Of a DNA stretch of 64,000 nucleotides, positions 8,842 to 28,280 are shown piece by piece. Under the pieces are notes generated by a model that was not told where the DNA came from, did no database searches, and was given only the letters and a program-made list of their open reading frames with translations. Source of the DNA: Spirochaetaceae bacterium (GTDB lineage Bacteria > Spirochaetota > Spirochaetia > DSM-2461); NCBI GenBank assembly GCA_051531975.1, contig JAOPTT010000009.1:256001-320000 (forward strand). The letters run 5' to 3'. Position numbers and translations under genes: made by a program. Position 1 is the stretch's first letter; each line of letters opens with the position of its first letter.

Positions 8842-8854
8842 TTTCTCGCTCCTA

Positions 8855-9724: not shown

Positions 9725-9748
9725 ACGCAACAAATCCTTATAATGTAT

Positions 9749-9777
9749 AAAAAGGGGCACCTTTAATAGATGCCCCC
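9749..9777 (-). terminator. Intercistronic stem-loop after SBP gene
   Basis: GGGGCA...TGCCCC hairpin with adjacent A-run. Confidence 0.55.
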
Positions 9778-9790
9778 GGTTTAAATTAAA

Positions 9791-11072: not shown

Positions 11073-11093
11073 TTACTTACTCTAAGTAAGTAA
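11073..11093. promoter_or_regulatory. Putative ROK-repressor operator 1
   Basis: Perfect palindrome TTACTTAC-tctaa-GTAAGTAA just upstream of the SBP RBS. Confidence 0.75.
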
Positions 11094-11149
11094 AGCATGT
11101 CAAACCAAAATCTGTCAAACAAAAAATGAATATTTTGCAAAAAAAATAA

Positions 11150-12439: not shown

Positions 12440-12460
12440 TTATTTACTGTAAGTAACTAA
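12440..12460. promoter_or_regulatory. Putative ROK-repressor operator 2
   Basis: TTATTTAC-tgtaa-GTAACTAA just upstream of the transketolase RBS. Confidence 0.75.
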
Positions 12461-12477
12461 ATGAATTAGGAGTGATT

Positions 12478-13296
12478 ATGTCAAATGAAGATTTGAAAGA
12501 ATTAGAAGTAATAGCAAAAGAAGTTAGAAAGAATACAATAGACTCTATTGGATATCTTGGTGTTGGGCATATAGGTGGTGCAATGTCTATAGTTGAGTTA
12601 TTAACAATATTGTATTACAGAAAGATGAAAATCGATCCTAAAAATCCAAAAATGGAAGATAGGGATAAATTAGTTTTATCAAAAGGACATGCTGGTCCTG
12701 CTTTATATAGTATTTTAGCTCAGAAGGAATATTTTCCTATAGAGTGGCTTAGAACTCTTAACCAGGGTGGTACAAAATTACCAAGTCACTGCGACATGAA
12801 CATGACCCCTGGTATCGATATGACAACAGGGTCTTTAGGCCAAGGATTATCTAGTGCTATTGGTCTGTGTTTAGCAATGAAGCTTGATAAAATTGATCGA
12901 AACGTTTTTACAATAATCGGTGATGGTGAATCCCAAGAGGGTCAAAACTGGGAAGCTGCAATGACAGCAGCCCACTATAAGTTAAACAAGTTAATTGCAT
13001 TTACTGATAATAACAAAATGCAGATAGATGGTTATACAAACGAAATTATGCCAATAGATGATTTAGAAAAAAAATGGTCAGCTTTTGGTTGGAATACTCA
13101 AAGAATAGATGGGCATGATTTTAAAGCTTTAGATAAGGCTATTGATAATGCAAGAGCCTGTACTGATAAACCTTCCATGATCATTATGGATACGATTAAA
13201 GGTAAAGGTTGTACATTTGCAGAGGGTGTAATTACAAATCATAACATGGCGTTTACTCACGACGCTGCATTAGAAGCTATTAAGGCTTTAGGTTAA
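12478..13296 (+). CDS. Transketolase, N-terminal subunit (probable 6-deoxy-6-sulfofructose transketolase, SqwGH-type)
   Basis: GHIGG, SKGHAGPALY, TGSLGQG, ThDP motif GDGESQEG; AGGAG RBS. Confidence 0.92.
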   Translation: MSNEDLKELEVIAKEVRKNTIDSIGYLGVGHIGGAMSIVELLTILYYRKMKIDPKNPKMEDRDKLVLSKGHAGPALYSILAQKEYFPIEWLRTLNQGGTKLPSHCDMNMTPGIDMTTGSLGQGLSSAIGLCLAMKLDKIDRNVFTIIGDGESQEGQNWEAAMTAAHYKLNKLIAFTDNNKMQIDGYTNEIMPIDDLEKKWSAFGWNTQRIDGHDFKALDKAIDNARACTDKPSMIIMDTIKGKGCTFAEGVITNHNMAFTHDAALEAIKALG

Positions 13297-13306
13297 GGGG
13301 GATAAA

Positions 13307-14251
13307 ATGTCAGATAAAGATATGAGAGAAGTATATACAAATACATTAATAAAAATGGCTGAAACTAACGATAAAATTTGTGTTATGGAAGCGGATTTAA
13401 TGAGAGCAACAGGTACTTTTCCTTTTAGAGATAAGTTCCCAGAAAGAACTTTTAATGTAGGTGTTGCAGAGGCAAACATGGTAGGTGTGGCATCTGGTCT
13501 ATCTGCTGGTGGAAAGATTCCATTTGCAGCAACATTTGGTTGTTTTGCAGCAAGAAGAACTTTTGATCAATTTTTCATCTCTGCAAACTATGCTAAACAA
13601 AACGTTAAACTAGTTGGAACTGATCCTGGTGTTTCTGCAGCATTTAATGGTGGAACACATATGCCTTTCGAAGACGTTGGTATGATGCGTTGTATACCTA
13701 ATCTAGTAATTTTTGAACCTTCAGATACTGTATCTTTAGCTAAACTATTAGTGCAATCAGCTGAACATAAAGGTTCAACTTACATGCGATTACAACGAAA
13801 GGGTAAAAACACAAGATATAACGATGATGATGAAATTATTTTAGGTAAAGGTAAGGTTATTCAGGAAGGAACAGATGTAACAATTATTGCAACTGGTTAT
13901 GTCCTTGTAGAAGAGGCTGTAAAAGCGACTGAAATCCTAACTAAAGAGGGTCTTTCTGTAAAACTAATTGATATGCATACAGTTAAACCATTAGATAGAG
14001 ATCTAATTTTAGAGTGTGCAAAAAGTACTAAAGCAATAGTAGTATGCGAAAATCATCAAAAAGCTGGTGGTCTTTATTCAGCTATAGCTGAACTTTTAGC
14101 AGCAGAATACCCAACTTTAATGCAAGCAGTTGCAGTAGAAGATAAATTTGGTCAGGTTGGAACATTAGATTTCTTAAAACAAGCTTATGGTTTTACAGCA
14201 GATAACATTGTAAATAAAACAAAACAATTATTAGGGAGAAAAAATGGATAA
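13307..14251 (+). CDS. Transketolase, C-terminal subunit (SqwGH-type)
   Basis: GVAEANMVGVASGLS, GGTHMPFED, DMHTVKPLD. Confidence 0.92.
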   Translation: MSDKDMREVYTNTLIKMAETNDKICVMEADLMRATGTFPFRDKFPERTFNVGVAEANMVGVASGLSAGGKIPFAATFGCFAARRTFDQFFISANYAKQNVKLVGTDPGVSAAFNGGTHMPFEDVGMMRCIPNLVIFEPSDTVSLAKLLVQSAEHKGSTYMRLQRKGKNTRYNDDDEIILGKGKVIQEGTDVTIIATGYVLVEEAVKATEILTKEGLSVKLIDMHTVKPLDRDLILECAKSTKAIVVCENHQKAGGLYSAIAELLAAEYPTLMQAVAVEDKFGQVGTLDFLKQAYGFTADNIVNKTKQLLGRKNG

Positions 14252-14732
14252 AATTAAACTAGCAATAGCGTCGGACTTGTCAGGGTTTCCACTAAAACAA
14301 GCAATTGTTGCCCACTTAGAAGAGAACTATAAAGACAAAATCGAAGTAGTTGATTTTGGTATAGAGAGTGAAGATAAACCTCAACCATATTTTGTTCAGG
14401 CTCCTAAAGTTGCAAAAGTAGTACAGAGTGGGGAAGTAGATAAAGGTATTTTAATCTGTGGAACTGGTCAGGGTATGGCTATTGTTGCAAATAAATATAG
14501 AGGTGTTTATGCATCTGTTGTAGATAGTGTTTTCTCTGGAGAGAGATCTAAAATTATTAACAATGCAAATGTTATTACTATGGGTGGTTGGATAACAGCA
14601 CCATTTTTAGGATTACAAATTGTTGATGGTTGGTTATCTATGGCATTTACTCAAAAAATGGAGTTCAAAAAAGACTTCTTAACAAATGCTTTTAACGAAG
14701 TTCAAAAGATTGAGGAAGAAATTTATGGCTGA
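14244..14732 (+). CDS. sqwI: RpiB/LacAB-family isomerase (probable 4-deoxy-4-sulfoerythrose isomerase)
   Basis: GILICGTGQGMAIVANK; the usual RpiB DH motif is altered (ASDLSG); located in the SQ cluster. Confidence 0.8.
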   Translation: MDKIKLAIASDLSGFPLKQAIVAHLEENYKDKIEVVDFGIESEDKPQPYFVQAPKVAKVVQSGEVDKGILICGTGQGMAIVANKYRGVYASVVDSVFSGERSKIINNANVITMGGWITAPFLGLQIVDGWLSMAFTQKMEFKKDFLTNAFNEVQKIEEEIYG

Positions 14733-16140
14733 TACAAAATTAATAATTGCAAATCTTGTCGACAGAGCAAGAAAAGCACAATCTTTGGTTAATTCTTATT
14801 CTCAGACACAACTTGATGATATTTGCCTTTCCATTGCCTGGGAAATGTACAATGATGAAAATATTAAAATCTTAGCTGAAATGGCTGTCGAAGAGACAGG
14901 TATGGGAAATGTTTCTGATAAAATCAAAAAACATAAAGGAAAAGTCCTTGGTATTATTACCGATGTGAAAGGTGTAAAATCTACTGGACTTATTGACCAT
15001 GATACAAAAACTAAAATTAAAAAATATGCTAAACCTGTCGGTGTTGTAGGAGCTTTGACTCCTGTAACTAATCCCACAGCAACACCAGCAAGCAATGCTG
15101 TTTCTATCTTAAAAGGTGGGAACGCTGTTATATTCGCTCCTCACCCTAAATCAAAAAATTGTTCAAAAAAAGCAATAGATTTTATGAGACAGGGACTAAA
15201 AAAAGTGGGAGCTCCAGTCGATTTGATTCAGATTGTAGAAGAACCTTCTATTGAAGGTACAGGTGAACTAATGGCCCAGGTTGATCTTGTCCTAGCTACT
15301 GGTGGTGGAGCCATGGTAAAAGCTGCTTATTCTAGTGGAACTCCAGCTTATGGTGTAGGACCTGGAAACTCAGTTCAGATAATATCTGAAGATGCTGATA
15401 TTAAAGATGCAGTGGCAAAAGTTGTTTTGAGTAAATGTTTTGATCATGCTACATCCTGTTCATCGGAGAACTCGATAATTGTAGAGGACTCTGTATATGA
15501 CGAAGTTGTGACTAACCTAAAAGCTAGCGGATCATATCTCTGTAATAACAGTGAAAGAGAGACTCTAGGTAACTGGATGTGGATAAAAAACTCTAAAGGT
15601 TTCAGATCAATAAACCCATCCATAGTCGCTAAATCCGCTAAAGTTATAGCCGAGGGTGCAGGGCTTAAAGTACCTGAAACAACAGAAATTTTACTTGTTG
15701 AAGGGTCTATGCCCCTGGAAGATGATTTTTTCAGTCAAGAGAAATTATCACCTGTTTTAACAATCTGGAAATATTCAGGTTTTGATAATGCAATGGAGAT
15801 TCTTACAAGACTTACAGATAATTGTGGTACAGGTCATTCTTGCGGTATTCATACATTTACTGATTCATATGTAGAGAGAATGTCTCTAGAGATGAAAACC
15901 AGTCGTATTATGGTAAACCAGCCCCAGGCTCCAGCCAACGGTGGAAACTTTTTTAACGGTATGGCCTCGACAACAACATTGGGTTGCGGTACATGGGGTG
16001 GAAATATCACCACAGAAAATATTACTTACAAGCATTTTTTGAACATTACATATGTTTCACAGTGGTTTCCTCCGGTAAAACCGGAAGATGTTGATATCTG
16101 GGGTGAATTTCACAAAAAATACAGAACTGATAGGAAATAA
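14725..16140 (+). CDS. sqwD: CoA-acylating aldehyde dehydrogenase, SauS-like (probable sulfoacetaldehyde dehydrogenase)
   Basis: PVGVVGALTPVTNP, ATGG, catalytic region SKCFDHATSCSSENS resembling SauS, LGCGTWGGN; ATG 14725 with GAGGA RBS. Confidence 0.8.
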   Translation: MADTKLIIANLVDRARKAQSLVNSYSQTQLDDICLSIAWEMYNDENIKILAEMAVEETGMGNVSDKIKKHKGKVLGIITDVKGVKSTGLIDHDTKTKIKKYAKPVGVVGALTPVTNPTATPASNAVSILKGGNAVIFAPHPKSKNCSKKAIDFMRQGLKKVGAPVDLIQIVEEPSIEGTGELMAQVDLVLATGGGAMVKAAYSSGTPAYGVGPGNSVQIISEDADIKDAVAKVVLSKCFDHATSCSSENSIIVEDSVYDEVVTNLKASGSYLCNNSERETLGNWMWIKNSKGFRSINPSIVAKSAKVIAEGAGLKVPETTEILLVEGSMPLEDDFFSQEKLSPVLTIWKYSGFDNAMEILTRLTDNCGTGHSCGIHTFTDSYVERMSLEMKTSRIMVNQPQAPANGGNFFNGMASTTTLGCGTWGGNITTENITYKHFLNITYVSQWFPPVKPEDVDIWGEFHKKYRTDRK

Positions 16141-16142
16141 AT

Positions 16143-17264
16143 ATGAAACTATTTGAATACCAGGCTAAAGAGACTTTTAAACGTTATGGAATAACAATTC
16201 CGAATAGTGTAGTTATTACTTCTATCGATGAACTGAAAGATGCAACAGATAAAATAGGATTTCCTCTTGTTTTGAAATCACAAATTTTAATGGGCGGTCG
16301 TGGTAAAGCTGGACTTATCCCTTTTGTCAGGGATGAAAAAGAAGTCAAAGAAAAATGCGAAATGCTATTTGCATCGGAATACAATGTAAATACAATCCTT
16401 GTGGAAGAAGCTGTTGATATCAAAAAAGAAATTTATCTCTCAATTACTGTTGATCCAGTAACTGCTTCTCATATGGTTATAGCCTGTGCTGACGGTGGTG
16501 TGGAGATTGAAATTCTTGCAGTGGACTCACCTGAAAAAATCTTAAGAGAATTTGTCGATCCAAATCTTGGACTTATGCCGTTCCAGATTAAAGATATTGC
16601 ATTTCGTTTAGGATTTGAGGGTGATGTGATGAAAAAATTCTCATCAGTTCTAACCAAACTATATGAAGCTTTTTTAAAAAATGATGCAGAACTCATAGAA
16701 ATAAATCCACTATTTATTACAGGCAATGATGATGTTATAGCCGGGGATGGGAAATTATCAATCGATGATAACTCTACTTTCCGACAGGACACATATAAGA
16801 AAACACGGGATTATTACGATTCTGATGCTGAATATGAATCGGCTCTAGAGGGGATTCCTTATTTGCAATTTGATGGAGATATCAGCCTTATGTGTGCCGG
16901 GGCTGGACTTACGACGACAGTTTACGATCTTATCAATTATGAAGGTGGAACTGTTGCAAATTACCTTGAATTTGGTGGCCCCAACTACAAAAAGGCGTTA
17001 AAAGCCATGGAGTTGTGCCTGAAAAATGATTCCAAAGTTATTTTGATGGTTACTTTTGGTACAATTGCCAGAGCCGATGTTATGGCTGAAGGTATTGTAG
17101 ATGCTATTAAAAGACTTAAACCCGATCGTCCTATTGTCACCTGTATTAGAGGTACAAATGAAGAGGAAGCAAGCAGAATATTAAAAGCTGCCGGATTGGA
17201 ACCTCTTTACGATACAGAGGAAGCTGTCAGAAAAGCAATTTCAATTGCAGCGGGGGTTAAATAA
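16143..17264 (+). CDS. Succinyl-CoA-synthetase beta-like subunit (probable ADP-forming sulfoacetate-CoA ligase, SqwKL/SauCD-type)
   Basis: MKLFEYQAK, GGRGKAG ATP-grasp, EINPL; divergent CAGAGLTTT/NYLEFGG in place of SucC NGAGLAMAT/NFLDVGG. Confidence 0.85.
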   Translation: MKLFEYQAKETFKRYGITIPNSVVITSIDELKDATDKIGFPLVLKSQILMGGRGKAGLIPFVRDEKEVKEKCEMLFASEYNVNTILVEEAVDIKKEIYLSITVDPVTASHMVIACADGGVEIEILAVDSPEKILREFVDPNLGLMPFQIKDIAFRLGFEGDVMKKFSSVLTKLYEAFLKNDAELIEINPLFITGNDDVIAGDGKLSIDDNSTFRQDTYKKTRDYYDSDAEYESALEGIPYLQFDGDISLMCAGAGLTTTVYDLINYEGGTVANYLEFGGPNYKKALKAMELCLKNDSKVILMVTFGTIARADVMAEGIVDAIKRLKPDRPIVTCIRGTNEEEASRILKAAGLEPLYDTEEAVRKAISIAAGVK

Positions 17265-18148
17265 TGAGCATATTTATTGATGAAAATACACAAGTTCTGA
17301 TTCAGGGAATCACCGGTAAAGAGGGAAGATTCTGGACAGAGCATATGATAGGTTGTGGAACTAACGTAGTTGCTGGAGTTACCCCTGGAAAAGAGGGACA
17401 GCAGGTTGAAGGGAAAGATGTATATCATTCTGTTAGAAGAGCTGCCCAAGAAGTCGATGTAGAGGCTACCATGTTATTTGTACCTCCAAGATTTACTAAA
17501 GATGCAGTTTTTGAAGCTCTGGATTCAGGGATTAAAAAAATTGTTACTGTTGCAGACGGAATCCCTCTACACGATGCTATTCAGATTAGAAAAGCTGCTT
17601 TATCAGAAGGAGCCTTGGTAATCGGTGGTAATACATCAGGTGTTATATCTCCTGGAAAAGCAATGATGGGGTTTTTCCCATACTGGATCAAAAGAGTATA
17701 TAAACCCGGACGAATAGGAGTTATGACTAGAAGTGGATCTTTAACAAACGAAGTTACAGCTATGATTGTTAAGGCCGGATTTGGTGTTTCATCTTTAATC
17801 GGAATAGGTGGAGACCCTGTACCAGGAACTAGATTTGCAGAGATGCTCCCCTATTATGAAGCTGACAGTGAAACTGATGCCGTAGTAATTATCGGAGAAC
17901 TTGGTGGATCCATGGAAGAGGAATGTGCCCAGATGAAAAGAGATGGTTTATATACAAAACCTCTTGTTGCTTTTCTTGGTGGACGGACTGCTCCTGAAGG
18001 AAAAACAATGGGCCATGCTGGTGCTATTGTTTCCGGAGGAAAAGGTTCAGTTAAAGATAAAATTGAAGCGTTAGAAAGTGTCGGTGGTAAAGTTGCTGAA
18101 AGACCTCGTTTTGTTGGAGATCTATTAAAAGAGGTACTAAAAAAATGA
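17264..18148 (+). CDS. Succinyl-CoA-synthetase alpha-like subunit (probable sulfoacetate-CoA ligase)
   Basis: QGITGKEG, GVTPGK, phospho-His motif MGHAGA; GGNTSG in place of SucD GPNCPG. Confidence 0.85.
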   Translation: MSIFIDENTQVLIQGITGKEGRFWTEHMIGCGTNVVAGVTPGKEGQQVEGKDVYHSVRRAAQEVDVEATMLFVPPRFTKDAVFEALDSGIKKIVTVADGIPLHDAIQIRKAALSEGALVIGGNTSGVISPGKAMMGFFPYWIKRVYKPGRIGVMTRSGSLTNEVTAMIVKAGFGVSSLIGIGGDPVPGTRFAEMLPYYEADSETDAVVIIGELGGSMEEECAQMKRDGLYTKPLVAFLGGRTAPEGKTMGHAGAIVSGGKGSVKDKIEALESVGGKVAERPRFVGDLLKEVLKK

Positions 18149-19593
18149 GTATAGTTAACAGAAAAAAATTACTTTATCTCGGACTGGCTTTTATTGTTAT
18201 GCTAATAGTGATGGTATTTCCTTTTTCGGAATCTGTAAGAGGTGCTGGTAAAGGTTTTTTGACCCATGAAGGGCAAATAGCAATGGCAATACTTCTTTTC
18301 AGCCTTGTTTTATGGATGACAGAAGCTCTGCCTTTTCATATAACTGGAATGTTAAGTGTTGTTCTCCTTGCTATTTTTAATGTTGATACTTTTAAAAATA
18401 TTATAAATGTTGGTTTTGGAAATCATATTATTGCGTTTTTTATCGGTGTATTGGTACTTTCTGCATTTATTACAAAATCGGGTCTTGGAAAAAGAATCAG
18501 TGTATTTTTATTATCCAAAACAGGAAATAGTACAAGTCTGATAATTTTGGGGTTTATGGTAGTTGGTGCGACCTTATCAATGTGGATTACAAATATGGCT
18601 GTTGCAGCTATGTTACTTCCTCTTGGTGTTTCTATTCTTGATGAAGAGGGTTGTCTCAGACTAAAAAGTAATTTTGGAAAAGCTCTTATGATCGCCTGTG
18701 TTTGGGGCCCACTAATCGGTGGAATCGGAACACCTGCAGGAGCAGGTCCAAATCCTATTGCTATCGGTTTTCTAAAAGAGATGGCAGGTGTTGATCTTAG
18801 TTTTACTCAGTGGATGAAATATGGAATCCCTGCAGTTATTCTGCTTCTTCCTATTGGATGGGCTCTGCTTATATTAATGTTTAAACCTGAAATGAAACAT
18901 CTTAAAAAAACAAAAGAGGACCTCCGGCACGAATATGATAATTATCCTCCTATGGGCCGTGAGGAAAAACTTACTCTTGTTATTTTCCTTCTAACAGTTG
19001 TTCTATGGTTGACTTCAGGAATGATTGGAAAAGCTATTGGAATATCTATTCCAGTTTCAATGCCGGTACTGTTTACTGCTACACTTTTCTTTTTACCTGG
19101 AGTAACAGGATTAAAATGGAAAGAGATTGAGGAAGATATTTCCTGGAGTGGAATAATATTGGTTGTTACTGGAATTTCTATTGGGATGATGCTCTATCAG
19201 ACAGGAGCTGCTGGATGGCTCTCTTTTGTTCTACTCGGAGGAATAGGTGATTTCTCTCCTTTAATGAGAGTCGGGGCTATTGTCTTTATCGTTATGATTT
19301 TAAAAATTGCTCTCTCGAGTAATTCGGTTACAGCAACAATTGTTATTCCTATAATGATTGCACTGGCTGATAATCTTGGACTAGATGCACTGTCAATTGC
19401 ACTGCCGGCAGCCATAACAGCCTCTCTTGCATTTATACTAGTTACATCGAGTCCAACCAATGTTATACCCTATTCAGCAGGATTCTTTTCAATTAGGGAC
19501 TTTGCAAAATCAGGAATTATCATGACACTTTTTACAACTGTAATAGTCTCTTTGGTTATATATTTCGTTGGAAGAGCATCCGGTTTATATTAA
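18145..19593 (+). CDS. DASS/SLC13-family anion transporter (candidate sulfoacetate exporter)
   Basis: Many TM helices, LSMWITN, GGIGTPAGAGPN, SSPTN motifs of DASS carriers. Confidence 0.85.
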   Translation: MSIVNRKKLLYLGLAFIVMLIVMVFPFSESVRGAGKGFLTHEGQIAMAILLFSLVLWMTEALPFHITGMLSVVLLAIFNVDTFKNIINVGFGNHIIAFFIGVLVLSAFITKSGLGKRISVFLLSKTGNSTSLIILGFMVVGATLSMWITNMAVAAMLLPLGVSILDEEGCLRLKSNFGKALMIACVWGPLIGGIGTPAGAGPNPIAIGFLKEMAGVDLSFTQWMKYGIPAVILLLPIGWALLILMFKPEMKHLKKTKEDLRHEYDNYPPMGREEKLTLVIFLLTVVLWLTSGMIGKAIGISIPVSMPVLFTATLFFLPGVTGLKWKEIEEDISWSGIILVVTGISIGMMLYQTGAAGWLSFVLLGGIGDFSPLMRVGAIVFIVMILKIALSSNSVTATIVIPIMIALADNLGLDALSIALPAAITASLAFILVTSSPTNVIPYSAGFFSIRDFAKSGIIMTLFTTVIVSLVIYFVGRASGLY

Positions 19594-20170: not shown

Positions 20171-20277
20171 AATCGCTCCAATTATTTTAAGTTTAACAGA
20201 TCTATGCTTTTTATAGCAACAAACCATTTTTATATCTTTACATAAATTTCATTCAATGTTAACTTAAATTAGAATAC

Positions 20278-20298
20278 TTATTTACCTTAAGTAACTAA
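20278..20298. promoter_or_regulatory. Putative ROK-repressor operator 3
   Basis: TTATTTAC-cttaa-GTAACTAA upstream of the AGGAGG RBS of the cupin gene. Confidence 0.75.
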
Positions 20299-20318
20299 AG
20301 GCAGGAGGGGAGAGTAAC

Positions 20319-21080
20319 ATGGAAGAAATTTTAGATGCAACTAAACATAATGCTATAGAAAGCAGTTGTTTACTTAGTGAAGTATTTAACCAAAATAGTT
20401 CAAATTTAGACTGGCTAGCACTATCTGATATGAGAATTCAGAATAATAGATCTGCAGAGATCTCGTATAAAAACGAAGAGACATTAATTGTAAACCTTGA
20501 CGGGAATGTTCATGTATATGTTGATGGTGTTGACTACTTAGTAAAACATTACGATATGTTATATATCCCAATAGATACACCTTTTTCTGTTGAACAACAT
20601 GGTGAGGAAGAAGCTCATTTATATCTTTACAGAGCAACTGGTGATGTTAAATATGTAACTTACCACGCTGACTATGAAGCTTGTAAAAAAGATGAAGAGA
20701 GAATTAGATACTTAAATAAAAAAGTAGTATATAAAATGTTCGATGTAACTGAAAAAGCTAATAAGTTTATGGTTGGTTATACATTCTACGAATCAAGAAC
20801 TAGAGCTTGGCCTCCACATAACCACACAGACCAAGAAGAAGTTTACAGCTTTATTGAAGGTAATGGTGCAATGGAAGTTTATGCAGATGACGAAAACAAA
20901 ACTTTTGTTTCTTCTGTATCAGTGGGGGATCATATTACAATTCCTATACTTAACTATCACCCTGTTTTTAGTCACGATGAGCCATTATGTTTTATCTGGT
21001 GTATTTCTGGTGAGAGATACTGGGTTGGAGATAAAAATAAGGACTTCATGACTGCAAAAGTTGATAAGTTAACAACATAA
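20319..21080 (+). CDS. KduI/IolB-family bicupin isomerase (candidate SQ isomerase)
   Basis: WPPHNH..QEEVY...GDHITIP..NYHPV matches the IolB/KduI metal-binding cupin pattern. Confidence 0.75.
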   Translation: MEEILDATKHNAIESSCLLSEVFNQNSSNLDWLALSDMRIQNNRSAEISYKNEETLIVNLDGNVHVYVDGVDYLVKHYDMLYIPIDTPFSVEQHGEEEAHLYLYRATGDVKYVTYHADYEACKKDEERIRYLNKKVVYKMFDVTEKANKFMVGYTFYESRTRAWPPHNHTDQEEVYSFIEGNGAMEVYADDENKTFVSSVSVGDHITIPILNYHPVFSHDEPLCFIWCISGERYWVGDKNKDFMTAKVDKLTT

Positions 21081-21148
21081 ATACAAAACAAATCAGGAGA
21101 AATTGGTGTTAGAACAGCTCCACAAAATATGGAGCTGTAAACCGTTAT

Positions 21149-22051
21149 TTAACTCAATACTATATTTAAATTCCATACCTTTTTTTGATATGGTTTTAAG
21201 GTGGATTCTACACCCTGTTTCTCCGATGCCCCTGGGCTATCCATTGGTGCTGTTGCAGGTTCTAGCGCAATATTATACTGATTATTCCAGCCTCCATTGT
21301 TTATCCAAAAACCTAACCAGGGTAGGGATGTTTCAGAAAATATCATCTCTAAAGTTCCTCTTTTGTCCTTTAGACCACAATACCCCTCCTGTAGTGGTTC
21401 CCCAGAGTAAAATTTGAAGCAGGAATTAGCAGGCAGATTAAATGGTTTAAAGAGTGGAACACTTTTTTCTATTACTCCAGATCCGTCTGTATCATGTACC
21501 CGGTTTAAGCTTCCTAATATACCACCATTCATGGCCTGCCTAATGGATTTTAACCCTTTAGGCAGTAGAACCTTAGTATCCTCAAAAAAACTAAATAGAG
21601 GATGGGGAGTCCAAAGTGAAGGTAAAGAAACTGATGACAGATTTTCCACTGAGTAATGAATATGAATTTCATTAGATAATAGCTGAATCTTTCTCTTAAA
21701 AATATAAGGTAGAAGTTCACCTTTAACAGCCATCCCTAGGGAGGTATTATCAGAGTCGATGACTGTCCACTTTTTACTCCATAACTCACCATGATCAGGT
21801 AGTTCAATCGGTTTATTCAGTATGCCAGGGATAATTTCTCTGTTAATTGTTGGAAACATCTCATCAAATCCAAAAGCATCTGTTTTTCCAAAAACACTAG
21901 GGATCGATTCCTTATTATCCTTTGATGAATCTTGATACAACCATTCACATTTTTTAGATTTATTAAATATAGAACTGATTTTACCCCCCCGGGAGGGTAG
22001 AACTTCTACTCTAATTTCATCGTTTTCTAATATAATGATCCCTGTTTTCAT
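21149..22051 (-). CDS. Aldose-1-epimerase/galactose-mutarotase-like protein
   Basis: GFDEMFPT, PDHGELW, WTPHP, IALEP; ATGA overlap with upstream gene. Confidence 0.75.
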   Translation of the reverse strand: MKTGIIILENDEIRVEVLPSRGGKISSIFNKSKKCEWLYQDSSKDNKESIPSVFGKTDAFGFDEMFPTINREIIPGILNKPIELPDHGELWSKKWTVIDSDNTSLGMAVKGELLPYIFKRKIQLLSNEIHIHYSVENLSSVSLPSLWTPHPLFSFFEDTKVLLPKGLKSIRQAMNGGILGSLNRVHDTDGSGVIEKSVPLFKPFNLPANSCFKFYSGEPLQEGYCGLKDKRGTLEMIFSETSLPWLGFWINNGGWNNQYNIALEPATAPMDSPGASEKQGVESTLKPYQKKVWNLNIVLS

Positions 22052-25000
22052 AAAAGCCCTATCTGGTGACAAATATCTTTTTCAAGTATCTCTTTTTTTA
22101 GTGATTCAAACTCTTTTTGGTTTTCCAGACCTTCATATCCCAGTGCCATAATATATTTTGCCTGTAGATCTCTTCTTAATGTTATATCATCTTCAAATAC
22201 CAGTAATAATGGTAGCGATGTAGCAAAATAATCAATCTCAGCTCTCTCTTTAAGTTGTTTTTCACCATAACTTATCATCTGCCTATAAAGGTTTTCAGCT
22301 TCAATATTATGACCTAATTCAGTCATTGATTTTGCTGTATAATAAGAGTTTTCACTAATATCTTGAACCTCCATAGAGCTAAAATCACCTTTTATTTCAC
22401 TACTTTTTTTAAAAAATATGTCACTTTTATCTTTATCTCCAGCAGCCTTGTATGTAAGACCTAAGTAAAAGAAAATATAACTCTGGTTCTGTAGGGGATG
22501 CCAACTCTCTCCAAGATTTTCTGGGATAGTTAGTATACTGTTAAAGTGGTTAATAGCTTTTTTATAATCCCTGTTTTTTAATGCAACTTTTCCTAAAATA
22601 AGGTGAGAAGTAGCCCATGAACCAACAACCTGTCCTTCGCCACCTTCCCAGGGATGGAACTGTCTTGAATTAAGGATTTTTAGAACTTTGTCACACTCTT
22701 CTGTTAAATTGTATAAGTTGGTTATCTCAATTACCAGGTCATCCCTTTCTGTTATTAAGTTATAGTTTTCCAGGAGAAACTCTTTTCTTAATTGTATAGA
22801 AATGTTCATTTTCTTTTTAAGCTGATCAAGTTCAAAAAGTACCCGTCCGTCATTAGGTGCAAGAGTAAATGCTTTGTTATAATATTTTAATGCTTTCTCT
22901 GGGTTTTCTTCAAAGTTAAAATACGCAATCCCTAAGTTTCTGTATACTACTGAAAGTTTTGATCCCCTAGTTTCAGCCATCTCCCAGCAATTAATAGCGT
23001 CGGATTTTCTTTTTTTATCATAAAGAAGATTCCCAAGATAATATGGAGCATTAAAATCACTGTTATTTGTAGTTATAACCCAGTTTAGTATGTCGTACTC
23101 AAAAGCTGTTGAAGGGAAAAAGTGGGTTGGGTCCTGTTGTGATGCAACCCTAAGATCACTCTCAAACTCTCTATTTAATATATTTTTTACCATAGCCATT
23201 GTGTAATATGGCAGGGGAGATTTGTTCTGTTTAGAAAGTATTAAATAACCTTCAAGTATAAACTCTGCCTCTTTATATAATCCTGCAGAAATATAATCTG
23301 CTGCTGTATCAATATAGTTATTTTCACAACCCCTCATTAATTTTAAGACAATTTCCTGGTGTTCTTTAAGTTTATTAGAATCATTAAGTTTCTCAAAAAT
23401 AAACAGTAATTCGTTATGTGCCATAAGAAATAGTTTGTCTTTTTTAATAATATCAAGGCAGATGTTAAGTGCTTCATTATATTTGCCTATATTTCTTAAA
23501 ACAGCAGCTTTTAGTGTCCATGCCTTAAAATTATCATAATTGTAGTTAATGGACTGGTCCAAATGTTCCAGTGCAGAACCTATATTATTATTTTTTATAT
23601 CCAGAAGTGCAACTTCAAAATAACCTGCAGATCTCCATGCATAGTTCCAGGTGGATTTATAAAATGCGGCATAAGCATCTCTGTTTTTGTTTTGTTTTTT
23701 TAGAGCCAAACCTAAACCGTAAAAAGCTTCACCATCTATAGGGTTTGGGTGTTTTGAAGTTAAGCGCTCTATTGCACTTCTAAAATATGTTTCAGCAAGT
23801 TTATATTCAAATCTACTAAGATGGTATTGTCCCATTGCTGTATTACATCGGATATCTCCAGGATCTCTTCTTAATGCCTCTTTCCAATAATCCTCTGGGT
23901 ATCTGGTTGGGTGACGATACTGGTTAAGATGCTCTCCAGCAAGGTAGAGATCTTCTGTACTTTCAAGATCTTTAGGTTCCGGTGTCTCTTTAGCTGCCTC
24001 GGGAAGTTCTTCAATACCTTTATTATTATTAATTGTATATTCTATAAGCTTTTTCCCATCAAAAGAGATTAGTTTTATTGAAAGACCTTCAGGATCAGAG
24101 TTAAATGGTATCTCTGATGTGAACGGTTTTCCAGGTTCTAATTCAGCTTTAAACGAGTCTAACTTCTCCCCTTTATAAGAGATAATAATTTGGGCATTGT
24201 GTAGTTGGGATGTGCAACAAACTCCGGTTTTAACTGTTCCATTTTCATAACTAAGATGAACTGCGCCAAATAGATTTGCCTGGTGTGCTATACCAATACC
24301 CTGTATAGGAAACCATGTTTGTGTAAATGTTTTAGTCTCTCCTGGCATTAGGTAGGTAAAATCCGGTTGATTATTGGTATAGACCCCTGCCATTAGTTCC
24401 ACATATGGACCATTATCATCAGTTAAGTTTTTATCCCAGTTCCAACCAAACTCAGAATTACCCCATGTCCACTGTTTTTTACCAGGTGAAATATGTCTAT
24501 TTGCAACATGAACAAATCCACCTTCTTGCTTAAAGTCATAACCTCCAAAAAACTCACCTTCGGTCTCTACAACCATGTAGCTTGTTGGTACTGGTATGTT
24601 TTTATATCTAGAAATGTCTGTCCCAGGGGCATAATCAATTCCATAATAAATATCTTTCGCCAAAGGGAATTCACTCATTGCCCGGGCAGCATGGTCAGCA
24701 ACATAGTTAACATCAGGGGGGAAAAATGACTGATATTCATCGTGTACCTCGGCTGCTACATTTGCCCACCAGAGGAAAGTTTTAATATCCTCAGTTCTGT
24801 TATATAGACGTACTTTTGCCTGCAGTACTGAACTATCAGGTTTAAGGGATAGACCTATCATCCCCTTCATTCTTTCCATAGGATCATGGTCGCTTAACCA
24901 GACAGTTTTTGTCCCATCACTCTCGATTTCAAATGTATATTCAACAGGCATATATGTACCGGGTCTATGATGTTGGGGCCAGTTGAATTCTACTCCACCT

Positions 25001-25386
25001 GAGAGCCATGGACCAGCTAGACCAACAAGTGCTGGTTTTATTACGTCATTCCTGTAAAAGAAATCGTAGTTATTGTTTGTTTTATCCTGACCGATTTGAA
25101 TCCGGCCTCCAAGCTCTGGTAGTATTATAAAACGTACATAGTCATTTTCGAGAAATATTCCGTCATACTCTTTATCTATTTTGTCGTCGGATACTTTATC
25201 AATATATGGGATAGGATAGACTTTTCCACAACTTCCCTGATATACCCTTTTTTCAAAGAACATAGGATTATGTTCAGCTTCTCCGACCTCGTATGTTGGT
25301 ATAGAAATTTTGCTATTCCACAATTTTACCGATTCATTTTTTTGCTCTGCCGGTACATTAAAAATATATGGTGATTTAGTTTCCAT
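22048..25386 (-). CDS. DUF5107-domain tetratricopeptide-repeat protein (E. coli YphG-like)
   Basis: RVYQGSCGKVYP, IKPALVGLAGPWLSGGVEFNWPQHHRP, SPGKKQWTWG, FHPWEGGEG; C-terminal TPR-like helices. Confidence 0.85.
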   Translation of the reverse strand: METKSPYIFNVPAEQKNESVKLWNSKISIPTYEVGEAEHNPMFFEKRVYQGSCGKVYPIPYIDKVSDDKIDKEYDGIFLENDYVRFIILPELGGRIQIGQDKTNNNYDFFYRNDVIKPALVGLAGPWLSGGVEFNWPQHHRPGTYMPVEYTFEIESDGTKTVWLSDHDPMERMKGMIGLSLKPDSSVLQAKVRLYNRTEDIKTFLWWANVAAEVHDEYQSFFPPDVNYVADHAARAMSEFPLAKDIYYGIDYAPGTDISRYKNIPVPTSYMVVETEGEFFGGYDFKQEGGFVHVANRHISPGKKQWTWGNSEFGWNWDKNLTDDNGPYVELMAGVYTNNQPDFTYLMPGETKTFTQTWFPIQGIGIAHQANLFGAVHLSYENGTVKTGVCCTSQLHNAQIIISYKGEKLDSFKAELEPGKPFTSEIPFNSDPEGLSIKLISFDGKKLIEYTINNNKGIEELPEAAKETPEPKDLESTEDLYLAGEHLNQYRHPTRYPEDYWKEALRRDPGDIRCNTAMGQYHLSRFEYKLAETYFRSAIERLTSKHPNPIDGEAFYGLGLALKKQNKNRDAYAAFYKSTWNYAWRSAGYFEVALLDIKNNNIGSALEHLDQSINYNYDNFKAWTLKAAVLRNIGKYNEALNICLDIIKKDKLFLMAHNELLFIFEKLNDSNKLKEHQEIVLKLMRGCENNYIDTAADYISAGLYKEAEFILEGYLILSKQNKSPLPYYTMAMVKNILNREFESDLRVASQQDPTHFFPSTAFEYDILNWVITTNNSDFNAPYYLGNLLYDKKRKSDAINCWEMAETRGSKLSVVYRNLGIAYFNFEENPEKALKYYNKAFTLAPNDGRVLFELDQLKKKMNISIQLRKEFLLENYNLITERDDLVIEITNLYNLTEECDKVLKILNSRQFHPWEGGEGQVVGSWATSHLILGKVALKNRDYKKAINHFNSILTIPENLGESWHPLQNQSYIFFYLGLTYKAAGDKDKSDIFFKKSSEIKGDFSSMEVQDISENSYYTAKSMTELGHNIEAENLYRQMISYGEKQLKERAEIDYFATSLPLLLVFEDDITLRRDLQAKYIMALGYEGLENQKEFESLKKEILEKDICHQIGLL

Positions 25387-25514
25387 TAGTATCCTCCAAA
25401 TAGAACTTTGTCTTCTTCTATATATAGTAGGCCGTATTTCTTAAAAAACAATGGAGGAAATTATCTTAAAACTGGACTATCTTATGAAATTATTATATTT
25501 TTATACTTTATTAT

Positions 25515-26423
25515 ATGCAAAAGATGTCTTATATTATGTTTATGGAGAAATATCAAATAGATGGGTTTTTTAATCAGAGGTTAATTGTAATCCCAAATAA
25601 AATAAAAGAATCTTTACAGTCCGAAGTACTTTATAGAAGGTTATATATTACTGATATAGGATTTTTTCCAAAGGTGGCAACACATAGGAGAGATAGAGAG
25701 AAGGGTGTTTCCCAGCATATTTGTATCTACTGTGTTAAAGGTGAAGGATGGATTAAAACCGTCGAGGGAATAAAAAAAATATCGGAGAAAGAAATCCTGA
25801 TTATCCCCCAAAACACACCTCATAGTTATGGGTCATCACAGGATAATCCATGGAGTATATACTGGTTCCACTTCTCGGGAGAGGACTCTATCCAATATTT
25901 TAAAGATCAGAATCATATAATAATTAAAAAATTACAGGTGAATAATGAACTGAATTTTATCGAAATATTTGACCGAATATACCTGTCCCTTGAGAAGGGG
26001 TATAACAGGGGGAATATGATTATAGTTTCTGGGCTTTTTAGTTATCTATTATCCCTTATTTTTTTCTCAGGAAATAGAGATGAGTATAAACTTGATAAAA
26101 ATGGAGAGATAGTAGATAAAAGTATAGAATATATGCGGAATCATCTGAATAGCCAATTAACATTGAAGCAGATGGCTTCCTATGTTAACTACTCAATACC
26201 ACACTTTTGTGGCATATTTAAGCAAAAAACAGGACATTCTCCAATTCATTATTTTCTACAGTTAAAAGTTCAGAAAGCCTGCCTACTATTGGATACTACT
26301 CTGGATAATATATCAGAAATAAGTCGTACTCTAGGATTTGAAGATCCCTACTACTTCTCAAGAGTATTCAGTAAAATAATGGGTAATTCACCAAGAACTT
26401 ATAGAAAAATAAAGAAGGGGTAA
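25515..26423 (+). CDS. AraC-family transcriptional regulator (true start may be ATG 25542)
   Basis: Cupin PHSYGS..PWSIYWFHF and HTH GFEDPYYFSRVF. Confidence 0.93.
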   Translation: MQKMSYIMFMEKYQIDGFFNQRLIVIPNKIKESLQSEVLYRRLYITDIGFFPKVATHRRDREKGVSQHICIYCVKGEGWIKTVEGIKKISEKEILIIPQNTPHSYGSSQDNPWSIYWFHFSGEDSIQYFKDQNHIIIKKLQVNNELNFIEIFDRIYLSLEKGYNRGNMIIVSGLFSYLLSLIFFSGNRDEYKLDKNGEIVDKSIEYMRNHLNSQLTLKQMASYVNYSIPHFCGIFKQKTGHSPIHYFLQLKVQKACLLLDTTLDNISEISRTLGFEDPYYFSRVFSKIMGNSPRTYRKIKKG

Positions 26424-26435
26424 ATTCAAAATATA

Positions 26436-28280
26436 TTAGTCTTTATTTTCTAAATCTTTATCTTGAGCAATTGGTAATAGAATCGTAAAAACTGTATATT
26501 TTCCAGGTATACTTTGCACTGAAATATCCCCATTGTAGGATTCAACAATATGTTGACATATAGATAATCCTAAACCAGTATTTGTTTTTGTAACCTTAGT
26601 ACTATAAAAGGGAAGAAAAATATGATCCTGAATCTCACTTGGAATACCATGGCCATTATCCATAATTTCAATTTTTATATATTGTTCAATTTTATTTACT
26701 GATATTTGGGAAGTCTTTATAGTAATTTCACCACCAATAAGAACAGCTTCTGTTGCATTATACAGAAGGTTTATGAAAAGTTGCTTAAGTTTATTTTCAT
26801 GTCCTTCTAAAAATAGTGACTTACTTTTAAAAGATTTTTTAAGTGTTATTTTTCTTTTTTGAAAGCGGTGCCCTATTAGGGTTGCAACTTCTTCAAGAAG
26901 GGCATTTATATCTAGAGTCATCATAGGTCTAACAGCTACTCTAGAAAAAGACAGAAGGCTATTAATTGTTTCAACTATTCTAGTTAGTTCTGATTGAATC
27001 TTATCTACGCAATCAATAGAATCTTCATTTAGTTTTTCCATTTGAAGCAGGTCTAGGTAGTTTTGAATAATGCTTAAAGGGTTATTTACTTCATGGGCAA
27101 CACCTGCTGCCATCTCAGCAGTTGAAACAAACTTTTCGGCCTGCTGAAGATATTTTTGTGTCTCATAATCGACGGAAATATCTTCTAAGAACAATAACGT
27201 TCCCTGAGCGATATCCTTATCCTCACCAAGAGGGGACACCCGTATTTTTAATAACTTTTTATCTCCGAATTTTAATTTTTGCCACAATTCACTTTTTCGG
27301 TTTTTAATAGCGGCCAGAATATCATCACTTTTCTCAAGAGATAGTTTTTTAATATAATCAATTAATAGAGTATCTTTTATCTCTTCAGGTTTACATTCAA
27401 GAATTCTAGACGCAGCTAAATTAATATCTTGAATCTCATTTGTAGGTGAAATTATCATGAGTCCCTGGGGTATGTCGTTTATAATCCTTTTATCATACCT
27501 AGATATAAGCAGTGCTTTATTATTAACAGGAGTTTTTTCATAACCTTTATCTACAGCAAAGTTAAATGCAAGATTCATAAGTCTGGTTCTATTCACGAGA
27601 TTAACATCTTCTGTTCCTCGGCGGTGACCATTATGCATTATTGTAACTCTATCGGCTATTTGGAAAATCTCATCAATATTTGATGTTACATATATAATTC
27701 CCATTTTCTTATTACGACACATCCTTAAAAGTCTGTAAATATGTTCCTGCTGTTCTGGAGTTGTTCGTTGGGATATCTCGTCTAGAATAAGTATATCATC
27801 ACCACGGCCTAAAACCCGCATAAATGAGAGAACCTGTCTTCTTGAGAATGTAAGATCTGAAACCTTTGTTAGTGGATCTTCATCAAAACCATACTTTATA
27901 AAAAGTTCCTTGCACTCCTTTAAAAGCGCTCTTTTTTTAGTAGGTAACATAATGCCTGGGAAGCGCCCTATATATATGTTATCTAAAAGGGTTCCTGTAG
28001 TAATCACCTCATCATTTTGATATAACATCCCGATTCCATACTGGTGTGATAAAGAGGGAGTTAAACCTGTAACTATTTCCCCTTTTATTTTTATAACTCC
28101 ATCCTGGGCTGTATTATATCCACTTAAAAGTTTTACCAAGGATGATTTTCCTGAACCGTGATCACCTATTATAGCGTGAATTTCTCCAGGGTATAGATCA
28201 AAATCAATACCTTTAAGGGCGGTGAGGTTTCCATAAGAGTAATGAATGTTTCGCATTTTTACTAATGGATCTTTGTTCAT
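26436..28280 (-). CDS. ABC-ATPase-like domain / PAS / histidine kinase fusion protein
   Basis: N-terminal ~240 aa sugar-ABC NBD (Walker A GDHGSGKS, ILILDE); central PAS-like region; H-box AAGVAHEVNNPL, N-box QLFINLLYNA, DNGHG, F-box, TGLGLS; no TM segment. Confidence 0.9.
   Translation of the reverse strand: MNKDPLVKMRNIHYSYGNLTALKGIDFDLYPGEIHAIIGDHGSGKSSLVKLLSGYNTAQDGVIKIKGEIVTGLTPSLSHQYGIGMLYQNDEVITTGTLLDNIYIGRFPGIMLPTKKRALLKECKELFIKYGFDEDPLTKVSDLTFSRRQVLSFMRVLGRGDDILILDEISQRTTPEQQEHIYRLLRMCRNKKMGIIYVTSNIDEIFQIADRVTIMHNGHRRGTEDVNLVNRTRLMNLAFNFAVDKGYEKTPVNNKALLISRYDKRIINDIPQGLMIISPTNEIQDINLAASRILECKPEEIKDTLLIDYIKKLSLEKSDDILAAIKNRKSELWQKLKFGDKKLLKIRVSPLGEDKDIAQGTLLFLEDISVDYETQKYLQQAEKFVSTAEMAAGVAHEVNNPLSIIQNYLDLLQMEKLNEDSIDCVDKIQSELTRIVETINSLLSFSRVAVRPMMTLDINALLEEVATLIGHRFQKRKITLKKSFKSKSLFLEGHENKLKQLFINLLYNATEAVLIGGEITIKTSQISVNKIEQYIKIEIMDNGHGIPSEIQDHIFLPFYSTKVTKTNTGLGLSICQHIVESYNGDISVQSIPGKYTVFTILLPIAQDKDLENKD

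Follow-up and report, generated by a model that had tools for sequence, protein, structure and literature searches.

The window analysed here is a 64,000-nucleotide stretch of a Spirochaetaceae genome (genome G000; contig JAOPTT010000009.1, positions 256,001 to 320,000). It holds a gene cluster of the sulfoglycolytic transketolase (sulfo-TK) pathway for the plant sulfur sugar sulfoquinovose (SQ) and, beyond the last pathway gene, a gene on the plus strand for a two-domain cupin of the KduI/IolB type. Comparative evidence suggests that this cupin is probably the isomerase converting SQ to 6-deoxy-6-sulfofructose (sulfofructose, SF), which would make it a third, non-orthologous kind of SQ isomerase. 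The genes and features of the locus are listed below.

5381 to 6025, minus strand: SqvB/SftX (DUF4867 cupin), last gene of the YihQ/ABC operon; PF16161, 209.4 bits
6019 to 8010, minus strand: YihQ-type GH31 sulfoquinovosidase; NF007746, 880.5 bits, cut-off 553
8014 to 11056, minus strand: ATP-binding cassette (ABC) importer, with permeases at 8014-8841 and 8855-9760 and the solute-binding protein (SBP) at 9791-11056; BPD_transp_1, SBP_bac_1
11077 to 11094, no strand: operator copy 1, upstream of the ABC/YihQ/SqvB operon; arms ACTTAC / GTAAGT
11150 to 12322, minus strand: ROK-family regulator, presumed repressor; ROK 114.6 bits plus a weak winged helix-turn-helix, best NCBIfam matches NagC and Mlc
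12444 to 12461, no strand: operator copy 2, upstream of the transketolase operon
12472 to 14251, plus strand: split sulfofructose transketolase, SqwG at 12472-13296 (Transketolase_N) and SqwH at 13307-14251 (Transket_pyr and Transketolase_C)
14244 to 14732, plus strand: SqwI, RpiB/LacAB-family isomerase; PF02502, 126.8 bits, and NCBIfam LacA/LacB matches
14686 to 16140, plus strand: SauS-like acylating sulfoacetaldehyde dehydrogenase; best match NF047625, 512.8 bits, cut-off 600
16143 to 17264 and 17264 to 18148, plus strand: SqwK and SqwL (SucC- and SucD-like ligase); NCBIfam
18145 to 19593, plus strand: DASS transporter/exporter; TIGR00785
19658 to 20227, minus strand: gamma-carbonic-anhydrase-like hexapeptide-repeat gene, between the DASS and cupin genes
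20237 to 20265, plus strand: putative cupin promoter (TTTACA, 17-nt spacer, TAACTT), read from the sequence; the segment aligns with the transketolase promoter
20282 to 20299, no strand: operator copy 3, 20 nt ahead of the ATG of the cupin gene
20319 to 21080, plus strand: bicupin, proposed SQ-to-SF isomerase; PF04962, metal motif H167, H169, E173/E174, H214
21115 to 21137, no strand: hairpin (8-bp stem, 7-nt loop), a possible terminator read from the sequence between the convergent cupin and DUF4432 genes; a terminator scan made no call here, and a T-run is absent

By its gene content, the cluster is the predicted sulfoacetate-forming variant of the sulfo-TK pathway, with enzyme roles taken from passages of PMC9594981, PMC12890257 and PMC11659671. 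In the pathway as reviewed in those passages, the FucI-like enzyme SqvD/SftI (PF02952), possibly aided by SqvB, isomerises SQ to SF in the first step. SqwI is assigned to the later isomerisation of sulfoerythrose, an assignment given in PMC9594981 without a direct activity measurement. A preliminary description of the window held that every sulfo-TK step except the SQ isomerase is encoded, and the annotation agrees with it: all the other functions are present, namely SqwGH, SqwI, the SauS-like dehydrogenase, SqwKL and the DASS exporter, together with the sulfoquinovosidase and the importer. SqvB, which that description did not list, is encoded as well. The description also held that the window has no FucI-like or AGE-fold gene. 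This stands as well, since the genome-wide PF02952 matches lie only on contig C7 and the PF07221 match on contig C1.

The G000 assembly comprises 5,457,215 bases, with a completeness of 98.5% as judged from marker genes. Searches of it, in the rest of the genome as in the window, found no orthologue of SftI/SqvD or YihS. PF02952 recognises two genes genome-wide, both on contig C7, encoding a true FucI of 603 residues and a FucI-like protein of 493 residues. The best scores on the SftI model NF048012 are 61.7 bits for the FucI-like gene on C7 and 54.9 bits for a gene on contig C6; as a yardstick, the SftI-like genes in 42 sampled genomes of the phylum score 142-272 bits. Three spirochaete SftI-like queries (tblastn) recovered the same C6 and C7 genes at only 20-24% identity. 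The single AGE-fold protein (PF07221) is N-acylglucosamine 2-epimerase-like, and its gene adjoins that of a GntR regulator on contig C1. Three candidates for the isomerase were rejected. The FucI-like gene on C7, taken as a remote SqvD, scores 63.5 bits against a cut-off of 700, and its neighbours (an FGGY kinase, a full-length transketolase, a GH43 protein and a sugar ABC transporter) form a pentose-type cluster. The C6 gene, taken as SftI, lies in another sugar cluster with no neighbour resembling the SQ proteins of the window. A 418-residue open reading frame downstream of SqvB at 3877-5133 (minus strand), taken as a divergent SqvD, has a lipoprotein signal and no family match, and a hairpin separates it from SqvB. 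The FucI-like gene on C7 adjoins a gene for a small AllA/DUF4867-like cupin (L006:9786-11860), a pair that mirrors SqvD-SqvB outside sulfosugar metabolism.

The cupin gene encodes 253 residues, starts with ATG behind a GGAGG ribosome-binding site 8-12 nt upstream, and is present in a single copy in the genome. The protein is of the KduI/IolB type, as first described: it matches PF04962 at 52.2 bits over residues 24-235 (51.6 bits in the genome-wide search; gathering cut-off 23.9 bits) and Cupin_2 at 34.8 bits. However, it falls below the equivalog models of both KduI (NF002091, 42 bits against a cut-off of 250) and IolB (TIGR04378, 37.3 bits against 205). Because these scores lie so far under the cut-offs, the cupin is placed by sequence in a divergent third branch of the KduI/IolB superfamily, as a predicted orthologue of neither enzyme. 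It has no match to PF02952 or NF048012, which bears on family membership only and not on function; nor was a PF16161 (DUF4867) match found, or a DNA-binding domain in the domain scan. Two canonical KduI genes are present in the same genome (461 and 454 bits), each adjoining KduD, one pair on contig C4 and the other on contig C9 ~105 kb from the cupin gene. KduD was not found near 20319-21080. None of iolC, iolD, iolE, iolG and iolJ was found among the open reading frames scanned in the window (1-36,700), and the other two PF04962 genes lie outside the window, in line with the earlier statement that the cupin has no iol or kdu genes nearby.

The AlphaFold (AF2) model of the cupin shows two barrels (mean predicted local distance difference test score 96, predicted template modelling score 0.92). 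In a sequence profile search of solved structures, KduI enzymes were the only significant relatives (E = 1.2e-10), and the His-His-Glu motif of the cupin, PPHNHTDQEEVY, aligns with PAHTHARRMETY of KduI. Ranking by structure also places KduI first (Z 24.2, root-mean-square deviation (rmsd) 2.0 Å over 214 residues), followed by an IolB-like protein (Z 23.5). An alignment of 64 homologous sequences, down to 45% identity, showed ~50 invariant positions, among them the metal motif PPH167NH169TDQE173E174VY plus H214. Several Arg and Lys residues are conserved in the homologues (R128, R130, K135, R162 and R233).

The 18-nt operator TTACNNTAAGTAASTAAA starts at window positions 11077, 12444 and 20282, and these are its only matches on both strands of the genome. 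The earlier observation that the cupin gene carries the same operator as the two SQ operons is thus borne out, with three of three genome-wide matches at the three cluster promoters. The pattern was derived from these three sites themselves, and the genome count therefore shows specificity rather than an independent discovery. The promoter regions of the transketolase operon and the cupin gene align over ~80 nt, with TTTACA in common and 20 of 22 bases identical around the operator, and are, by this alignment, paralogous over that length. A consensus promoter scan made no call at the cupin promoter. The putative promoter lies on one side of the operator and the start codon on the other, a placement that suits a repressor. 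ROK genes recur in related SQ clusters, and we infer that the regulator pairs with the operator. The ROK protein would bind the common operator just downstream of the promoter and keep the cupin gene repressed along with both SQ operons, and repression would be lifted when SQ or an SQ glycoside is present.

The operator arrangement is kept in relatives. In L007, L008, L010 and G380 (L087), a TTAC-N5-GTAA site with extended similarity precedes the cupin gene by 29-65 nt; in L007 and L008 the site is present though no SQ gene lies within the fetched stretch. Related sites precede the transketolase, ABC or MFS-YihQ-SqvB operons in L009, L010, L011 and L088. A bare TTAC-N5-GTAA is expected only about once per 25-30 kb (estimated from base composition), so that chance does not account for a site immediately ahead of the cupin gene in five out of five genomes from this lineage. 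The Sediminispirochaeta-type genomes have a conserved segment before the cupin gene, but no convincing match to the sites at their SQ operons was found.

More than 1,200 homologues of similar length were recovered; those named in the sources are called 5-deoxy-glucuronate isomerase, 5-keto 4-deoxyuronate isomerase or mannose-6-phosphate isomerase-like. Restriction to a single genome per species gave 166 confirmed encoding stretches, of which the best 80 were taken with up to 10 kb per side. Neighbours were classified by profiles built from the loci and by Pfam/NCBIfam searches on cluster representatives. Genes of the TK/RpiB or transaldolase (TAL) branches of sulfoglycolysis are present in 32 of the 80 loci, from four phyla. 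Ten loci have a split transketolase with RpiB, often with SauS/SqwKL/DASS or Fe-ADH/TauE. The other 22 have an FSA-type transaldolase, usually with an aldehyde dehydrogenase and in several cases with TauE, a SuyB-like dehydratase, a ComC-like Ldh_2 protein or the racemase LarA (531 bits on the malate-racemase model); together these genes would meet the needs of a sulfo-TAL route that goes on to degrade sulfolactate. Four further loci have another sulfonate-related match, in two of them an AdhE-like match only. In a maximum-likelihood tree, the TK and TAL contexts are scattered over both main clades (Spirochaetota; and Planctomycetota-Verrucomicrobiota-Chlamydiota (PVC) bacteria with Acidobacteriota), and the link to sulfosugars is therefore family-wide rather than the accident of one lineage. 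The TAL-type loci lack RpiB, and the step common to the TK and TAL contexts is therefore that between SQ and SF.

The most telling ARRANGEMENTS are those of L009/L011, L010, G380 and L052/L059. In L009 and L011 the cupin gene (protein 78-81% identical) shares its strand with DASS, begins ~25 nt beyond it without an intervening operator, and is the predicted last gene of the transketolase operon. Compared with these loci, the window has an inserted opposite-strand gene, the gamma-carbonic-anhydrase-like one, and a second copy of the promoter and operator. The inserted gene is found here only, being absent from L009 and L011, and it has a 91-bp divergent region in common with the cupin gene, which holds the operator. 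In L010 the cupin gene abuts the SqwI and transketolase genes, and the locus also contains YihQ and SqvB. The closed 3.9-Mb genome G380, from another family, has the order ROK, YihQ, operator, cupin, SBP, permease, permease, and this YihQ-cupin operon is divergent from SqwG-SqwH-SqwI-SauS-SqwK-SqwL-DASS. In the Opitutae loci L052 and L059, the order is cupin, a 305-residue gene, SuyB-like, ComC-like, LarA, transaldolase, aldehyde dehydrogenase and ROK, and no RpiB, GFO, TIM-barrel or NagB-like gene was found in the locus. This cluster looks like a route from SQ to sulfolactate to pyruvate and sulfite in one locus. It is compact (L052:9944-17800, L059:2001-9700) and led by a PF03601 membrane protein, and its LarA scores over the malate-racemase cut-off. 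As a separate observation, a 281-residue NagB-like protein (88 bits on nagB, under the cut-off) recurs near the cupin gene (L042-L049, L060, L080), often beside a PIG-L/LmbE-type deacetylase, and ends the YihQ-cupin-ABC operon of G380 (L087:18709-19554).

The cupin and the known SQ isomerases have complementary distributions. Among 119 otherwise unlabelled open reading frames from 24 TK- or TAL-type loci, there were no matches to PF02952, PF07221 or PF16161. The FucI, FucI-like, AGE and AllA-like queries from G000 had no match in the 80 loci, and the three spirochaete SftI-like queries had none in 86 loci. Fifteen other cupin genomes were searched whole with NF048012: none reached the SftI cut-off (best score 110.7 bits) and nine had no match, and G380 had no match at all to the SftI model or PF07221. 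An AGE-fold match was absent from three of five TAL-type genomes. The phylum was sampled with 401 evenly drawn Spirochaetota genomes (SftI-like at E <= 1e-40, YihQ at E <= 1e-150). The cupin is present in three of these (G000, G380 and G175), an SftI-like gene in 42 and YihQ in 109; the cupin count of 3/401 is uninformative alone and gains meaning only when paired with the SftI and YihQ counts. YihQ is present in all three cupin genomes, and an SftI-like gene in none of them. YihQ and an SftI-like gene occur together in 24 genomes, with the two matches within 136 bp of each other in 19, and none of the 24 has the cupin. The mutual exclusivity that the first description would predict is thus observed, 24 genomes against three with no overlap.

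Two canonical clusters taken as controls show SftI in the place of the cupin. In G073 the order is ROK, x, SftI, YihQ, x, DASS, SqwG, SqwH, SqwI, where x is another gene. In G323, from the class of the window, YihQ, SqvB and x face SBP, permease, permease and SftI on the opposite strand; its ABC proteins are 58-67% identical to those of the window, and its ABC operon ends with the SftI-like gene. G073 and G323 are thus orthologous clusters in which SftI occupies the position of the cupin. In one family of the phylum sample (f20), 62 of 75 genomes have 720-800-residue proteins over the YihQ equivalog cut-off and neither an SftI-like gene nor the cupin; either this family has another SQ route, or that GH31 protein is not a sulfoquinovosidase.

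Taken with the missing step, the operator and the synteny, this distribution supports the non-orthologous SQ isomerase suggested earlier. We are confident that the cupin belongs among the enzymes of sulfosugar catabolism and works at the level of SQ and SF, and its identity as the SQ-to-SF isomerase is probable. KduI and IolB isomerise hexose derivatives with a C6 carboxylate. The C6 sulfonate of SQ fits an ene-diol aldose-ketose isomerisation at the metal of the modelled site, for which the fold is no proof. As a metal-dependent bicupin, the protein would interconvert SQ (an aldose) and SF (a ketose) and thereby supply SF to the SqwGH transketolase in a pathway without YihS and SqvD/SftI. Open-chain SQ would bind via O1 and O2 to a metal held by H167, H169, E173 or E174, and H214. 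The isomerisation would then proceed by way of an ene-diol, a proton moving between C2 and C1, on the model of KduI and further cupin-type sugar isomerases, with R128, R130, K135, R162 and R233 holding the C6 sulfonate as KduI and IolB hold the C6 carboxylate. The KduI function of the genome is already covered by the two KduI-KduD pairs, which counts for a role of the cupin in SQ metabolism.

Several observations weigh against this assignment. By fold, other bicupins are close behind KduI (Z ~22); the fold alone therefore leaves the function unfixed and supports a fold class rather than a specific family. Nineteen of the 80 loci have only GFO/IDH/MocA, NagB-like, PIG-L or xylose-isomerase-like TIM-barrel neighbours, some of which might be isomerases themselves, and 25 have none of these contexts within 10 kb. 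Twelve of these 25 (L015-L023, L026) have a common synteny of PGM, UPF0047, a cNMP-binding histidine kinase and the cupin, and in the Sediminispirochaeta-type loci L015-L019 and L022 a GH36 alpha-galactosidase gene follows the cupin gene after a short gap on the same strand. Weak FucI-family matches (30-111 bits) lie elsewhere in six of the 15 cupin genomes searched whole. Of the 109 YihQ-positive genomes, 82, of which 62 come from one family, have neither an SftI-like gene nor the cupin, and other solutions or other GH31 roles must therefore exist. The comparison genomes are mostly incomplete metagenome-assembled genomes. Finally, SqwI is present in all the TK-type cupin clusters, and its family includes hexose-6-phosphate isomerases and might also isomerise SQ.

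This last point underlies the main rival, a dual-role SqwI. Here SqwI would perform both isomerisations, SQ to SF and sulfoerythrose to sulfoerythrulose, and the cupin would be accessory, acting in ring opening, anomerisation or C2 epimerisation. Such a role would be comparable to proposals for the DUF4867 cupin SqvB or KdgF, and ring opening by cupins is on record (passages of PMC11968277). SqwI occurs in every TK-type cupin cluster examined, including that of G380; its family acts on 6-phospho-hexoses, as the LacA/LacB matches indicate, and its assigned role was given without an activity measurement (PMC9594981). However, canonical sulfo-TK clusters such as that of G073 keep SftI beside SqwI, and SqwI alone is therefore apparently insufficient there. 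RpiB is absent from all 22 cupin loci of the TAL type. Moreover, the presence of the cupin tracks the absence of SftI and not that of SqvB, since the window, L010 and G380 keep SqvB with the cupin. A dual-role SqwI is therefore possible but unlikely.

A second alternative places the cupin in an oxidoreductive route with its GFO/IDH/MocA neighbour, for example isomerising a keto-sulfosugar intermediate, with its use in YihQ clusters being secondary. A GFO/IDH/MocA gene clusters with the cupin gene in 28 of the 80 loci, many of them from PVC and Acidobacteria genomes, and the signed distance between the two genes has a median of -17 bp. The cupin also occurs with xylose-isomerase-like TIM barrels and a 3-keto-disaccharide hydrolase, and the GFO/TIM-barrel/cupin trio resembles IolG, IolE and IolB. 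However, the GFO and TIM-barrel proteins score far under the IolG and IolE cut-offs (120.6 against 355 and 64.9 against 290), and no GFO gene lies beside the SQ genes in the window, L009, L010 or L052/L059 clusters. A role on a keto-intermediate would, in addition, still leave the pathway of the window without an SQ isomerase. This alternative is improbable. The neighbours themselves were examined in the TAL-type loci: GFO/IDH/MocA is present in 19 of the 22, an XylTIM_a/b TIM barrel in ten, and the 3-keto-disaccharide hydrolase once (L047:10630-12440). The TAL-type loci of Verrucomicrobiota, Planctomycetota and Acidobacteriota (L046, L054, L062, L063, L071, L076, L081 and others) have no YihQ within 10 kb. 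These neighbours may represent oxidoreductive cleavage of SQ glycosides; in the clusters often lacking YihQ, they may provide a further, unrecognised NAD-dependent release of SQ from glycosides. An identification of the GFO/IDH/MocA neighbour with the NAD-dependent sulfoquinovosidase SqgA was dropped, since SqgA is described in PMC10755693 as a member of the SDR superfamily.

A third alternative, in which the cupin would be a conventional isomerase of the KduI/IolB type acting on a carboxylated sugar (uronate, inositol) or another sugar, such as the product of an alpha-galactoside, and would adjoin the SQ genes by chance, is very doubtful. Membership of PF04962, the names IolB or KduI given to homologues, and, in the Sediminispirochaeta-type loci, the placement of the cupin gene immediately ahead of GH36 in the same orientation speak for it. 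On the other side stand the equivalog scores of 42 bits (cut-off 250) and 37 bits (cut-off 205), the lack of an adjacent KduD or iol gene with two true KduI-KduD pairs elsewhere in the genome, and the operator in common with the SQ operons, kept in other genomes. Furthermore, all four Sediminispirochaeta-type genomes tested carry, elsewhere, a sulfo-TK cluster without SftI. This separate cluster consists of ROK, DUF362, SBP, two permeases and YihQ beside SqwG/SqwH; in L090, the locus that extends far enough, SauS and SqwK follow SqwG/SqwH. SftI was not found in the fetched SQ-cluster stretch of the four genomes. The DUF362 protein of these clusters has a 4Fe-4S dicluster and its gene lies between those of ROK and the SQ-binding protein (L089:2365-3471, L090:8831-9943, L092:15444-16550); a second DUF362 gene lies near the cupin locus of these genomes. 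Finally, since cupins include sensor domains, a non-catalytic role, for example partnering the ROK regulator as a ligand-binding or regulatory protein, could be conceived; it is exceedingly improbable, with an invariant His-His-Glu-His site and ~50 invariant positions over the 64 sequences, no DNA-binding domain found in the cupin, and the cupin also occurring in clusters with no ROK gene found nearby (L024 and L047, for example).

The SQ-to-SF isomerase assignment thus remains the preferred reading of the cupin. Full-text searches of the literature found no KduI/IolB-type cupin as an SQ enzyme; figures or supplements of the original sulfo-TK paper (ACS Catal 2021) could show variant clusters of this kind. 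Passages of PMC11968277 discuss the DUF4867 cupin SqvB/SftX as a protein of unknown role, and a rumen study of spirochaete sulfo-TK clusters gives SftI as the isomerase (passages of PMC13219744). If the assignment is true, the cupins are an enzyme family new to a reaction and a pathway that are both already known, and supply a third independent answer to one reaction within a set of pathways known for non-orthologous replacement. The large annotation class 'IolB/KduI-like' would gain a distinct, testable function. SQ is produced, by a figure given in literature abstracts, at ~10 billion tonnes a year, and its turnover is tracked by genome searches for known pathway enzymes. Clusters like that of the window would then be scored as incomplete or missed, and SQ degraders would be undercounted in spirochaete, PVC and Acidobacteria lineages of soil, freshwater and sediment. 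The chances are about even that the bicupin family as a whole is a third independent SQ isomerase class, marking sulfoglycolysis missed by marker surveys in Spirochaetota, Verrucomicrobiota, Planctomycetota, Lentisphaerota and Acidobacteriota.

Two further gene groups lie downstream of the cupin gene in the window. At 21149-26423, genes for a DUF4432 protein and a 1112-residue protein with DUF5107 and TPR domains overlap by 25 nt and face an AraC regulator; they are not kept beside the cupin gene in relatives, and both domains are uncharacterised. At 26436-29608 (minus strand), a 614-residue protein combines an N-terminal ABC-transporter ATPase with PAS, HisKA and HATPase_c domains, an unusual sensor-kinase architecture; its gene adjoins a sigma-54 response regulator and lies opposite an AraG/AraH-like sugar ABC system.

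Comparison with known systems places the cupin closest to KduI (NF002091; PDB 7e4s, 7yrs and 1xru). The two have the bicupin fold, the Pfam family and the aligned His-x-His...Glu metal motif of the C-terminal barrel in common. The reaction of KduI is an aldose/ketose-type isomerisation of a hexose with an anionic C6, and the reaction proposed for the cupin is alike. However, the cupin is only ~16% identical to KduI and shorter (253 against ~278 residues), and it has sulfosugar neighbours rather than a KduD partner. IolB (TIGR04378; IolB-like PDB 2qjv) converts a C1 aldehyde to a 2-ketone in a C6-carboxylated hexose. It belongs to the same Pfam family and has a similar fold (rmsd 3.0 Å over 224 residues at the Z of 23.5), whereas the cupin is far under its equivalog cut-off and has no iol genes among the window frames scanned. 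Compared with the known SQ isomerases, the likeness is one of predicted reaction and not of structure. SqvD/SftI (FucI-like; PF02952, NF048012) has the same predicted reaction and place in the sulfo-TK and sulfo-TAL pathways and occupies equivalent cluster positions beside YihQ or ABC genes, but its fold and sequence are unrelated to those of the cupin, and the two were never together in the genomes searched. YihS, the AGE-fold enzyme of the sulfoglycolytic Embden-Meyerhof-Parnas pathway, also has the same predicted reaction, with an unrelated (alpha/alpha)6 fold and, as stated in a passage of PMC9594981, no metal dependence. SqvB/SftX (DUF4867) is, like the cupin, a cupin encoded in SQ clusters and is reported to bind metal (passages of PMC11968277); it differs in being a single-domain protein of the PF16161 family with no detected activity on SQ or SF, and in the window the two are separate genes, SqvB at 5381-6025 and the proposed isomerase at 20319-21080.

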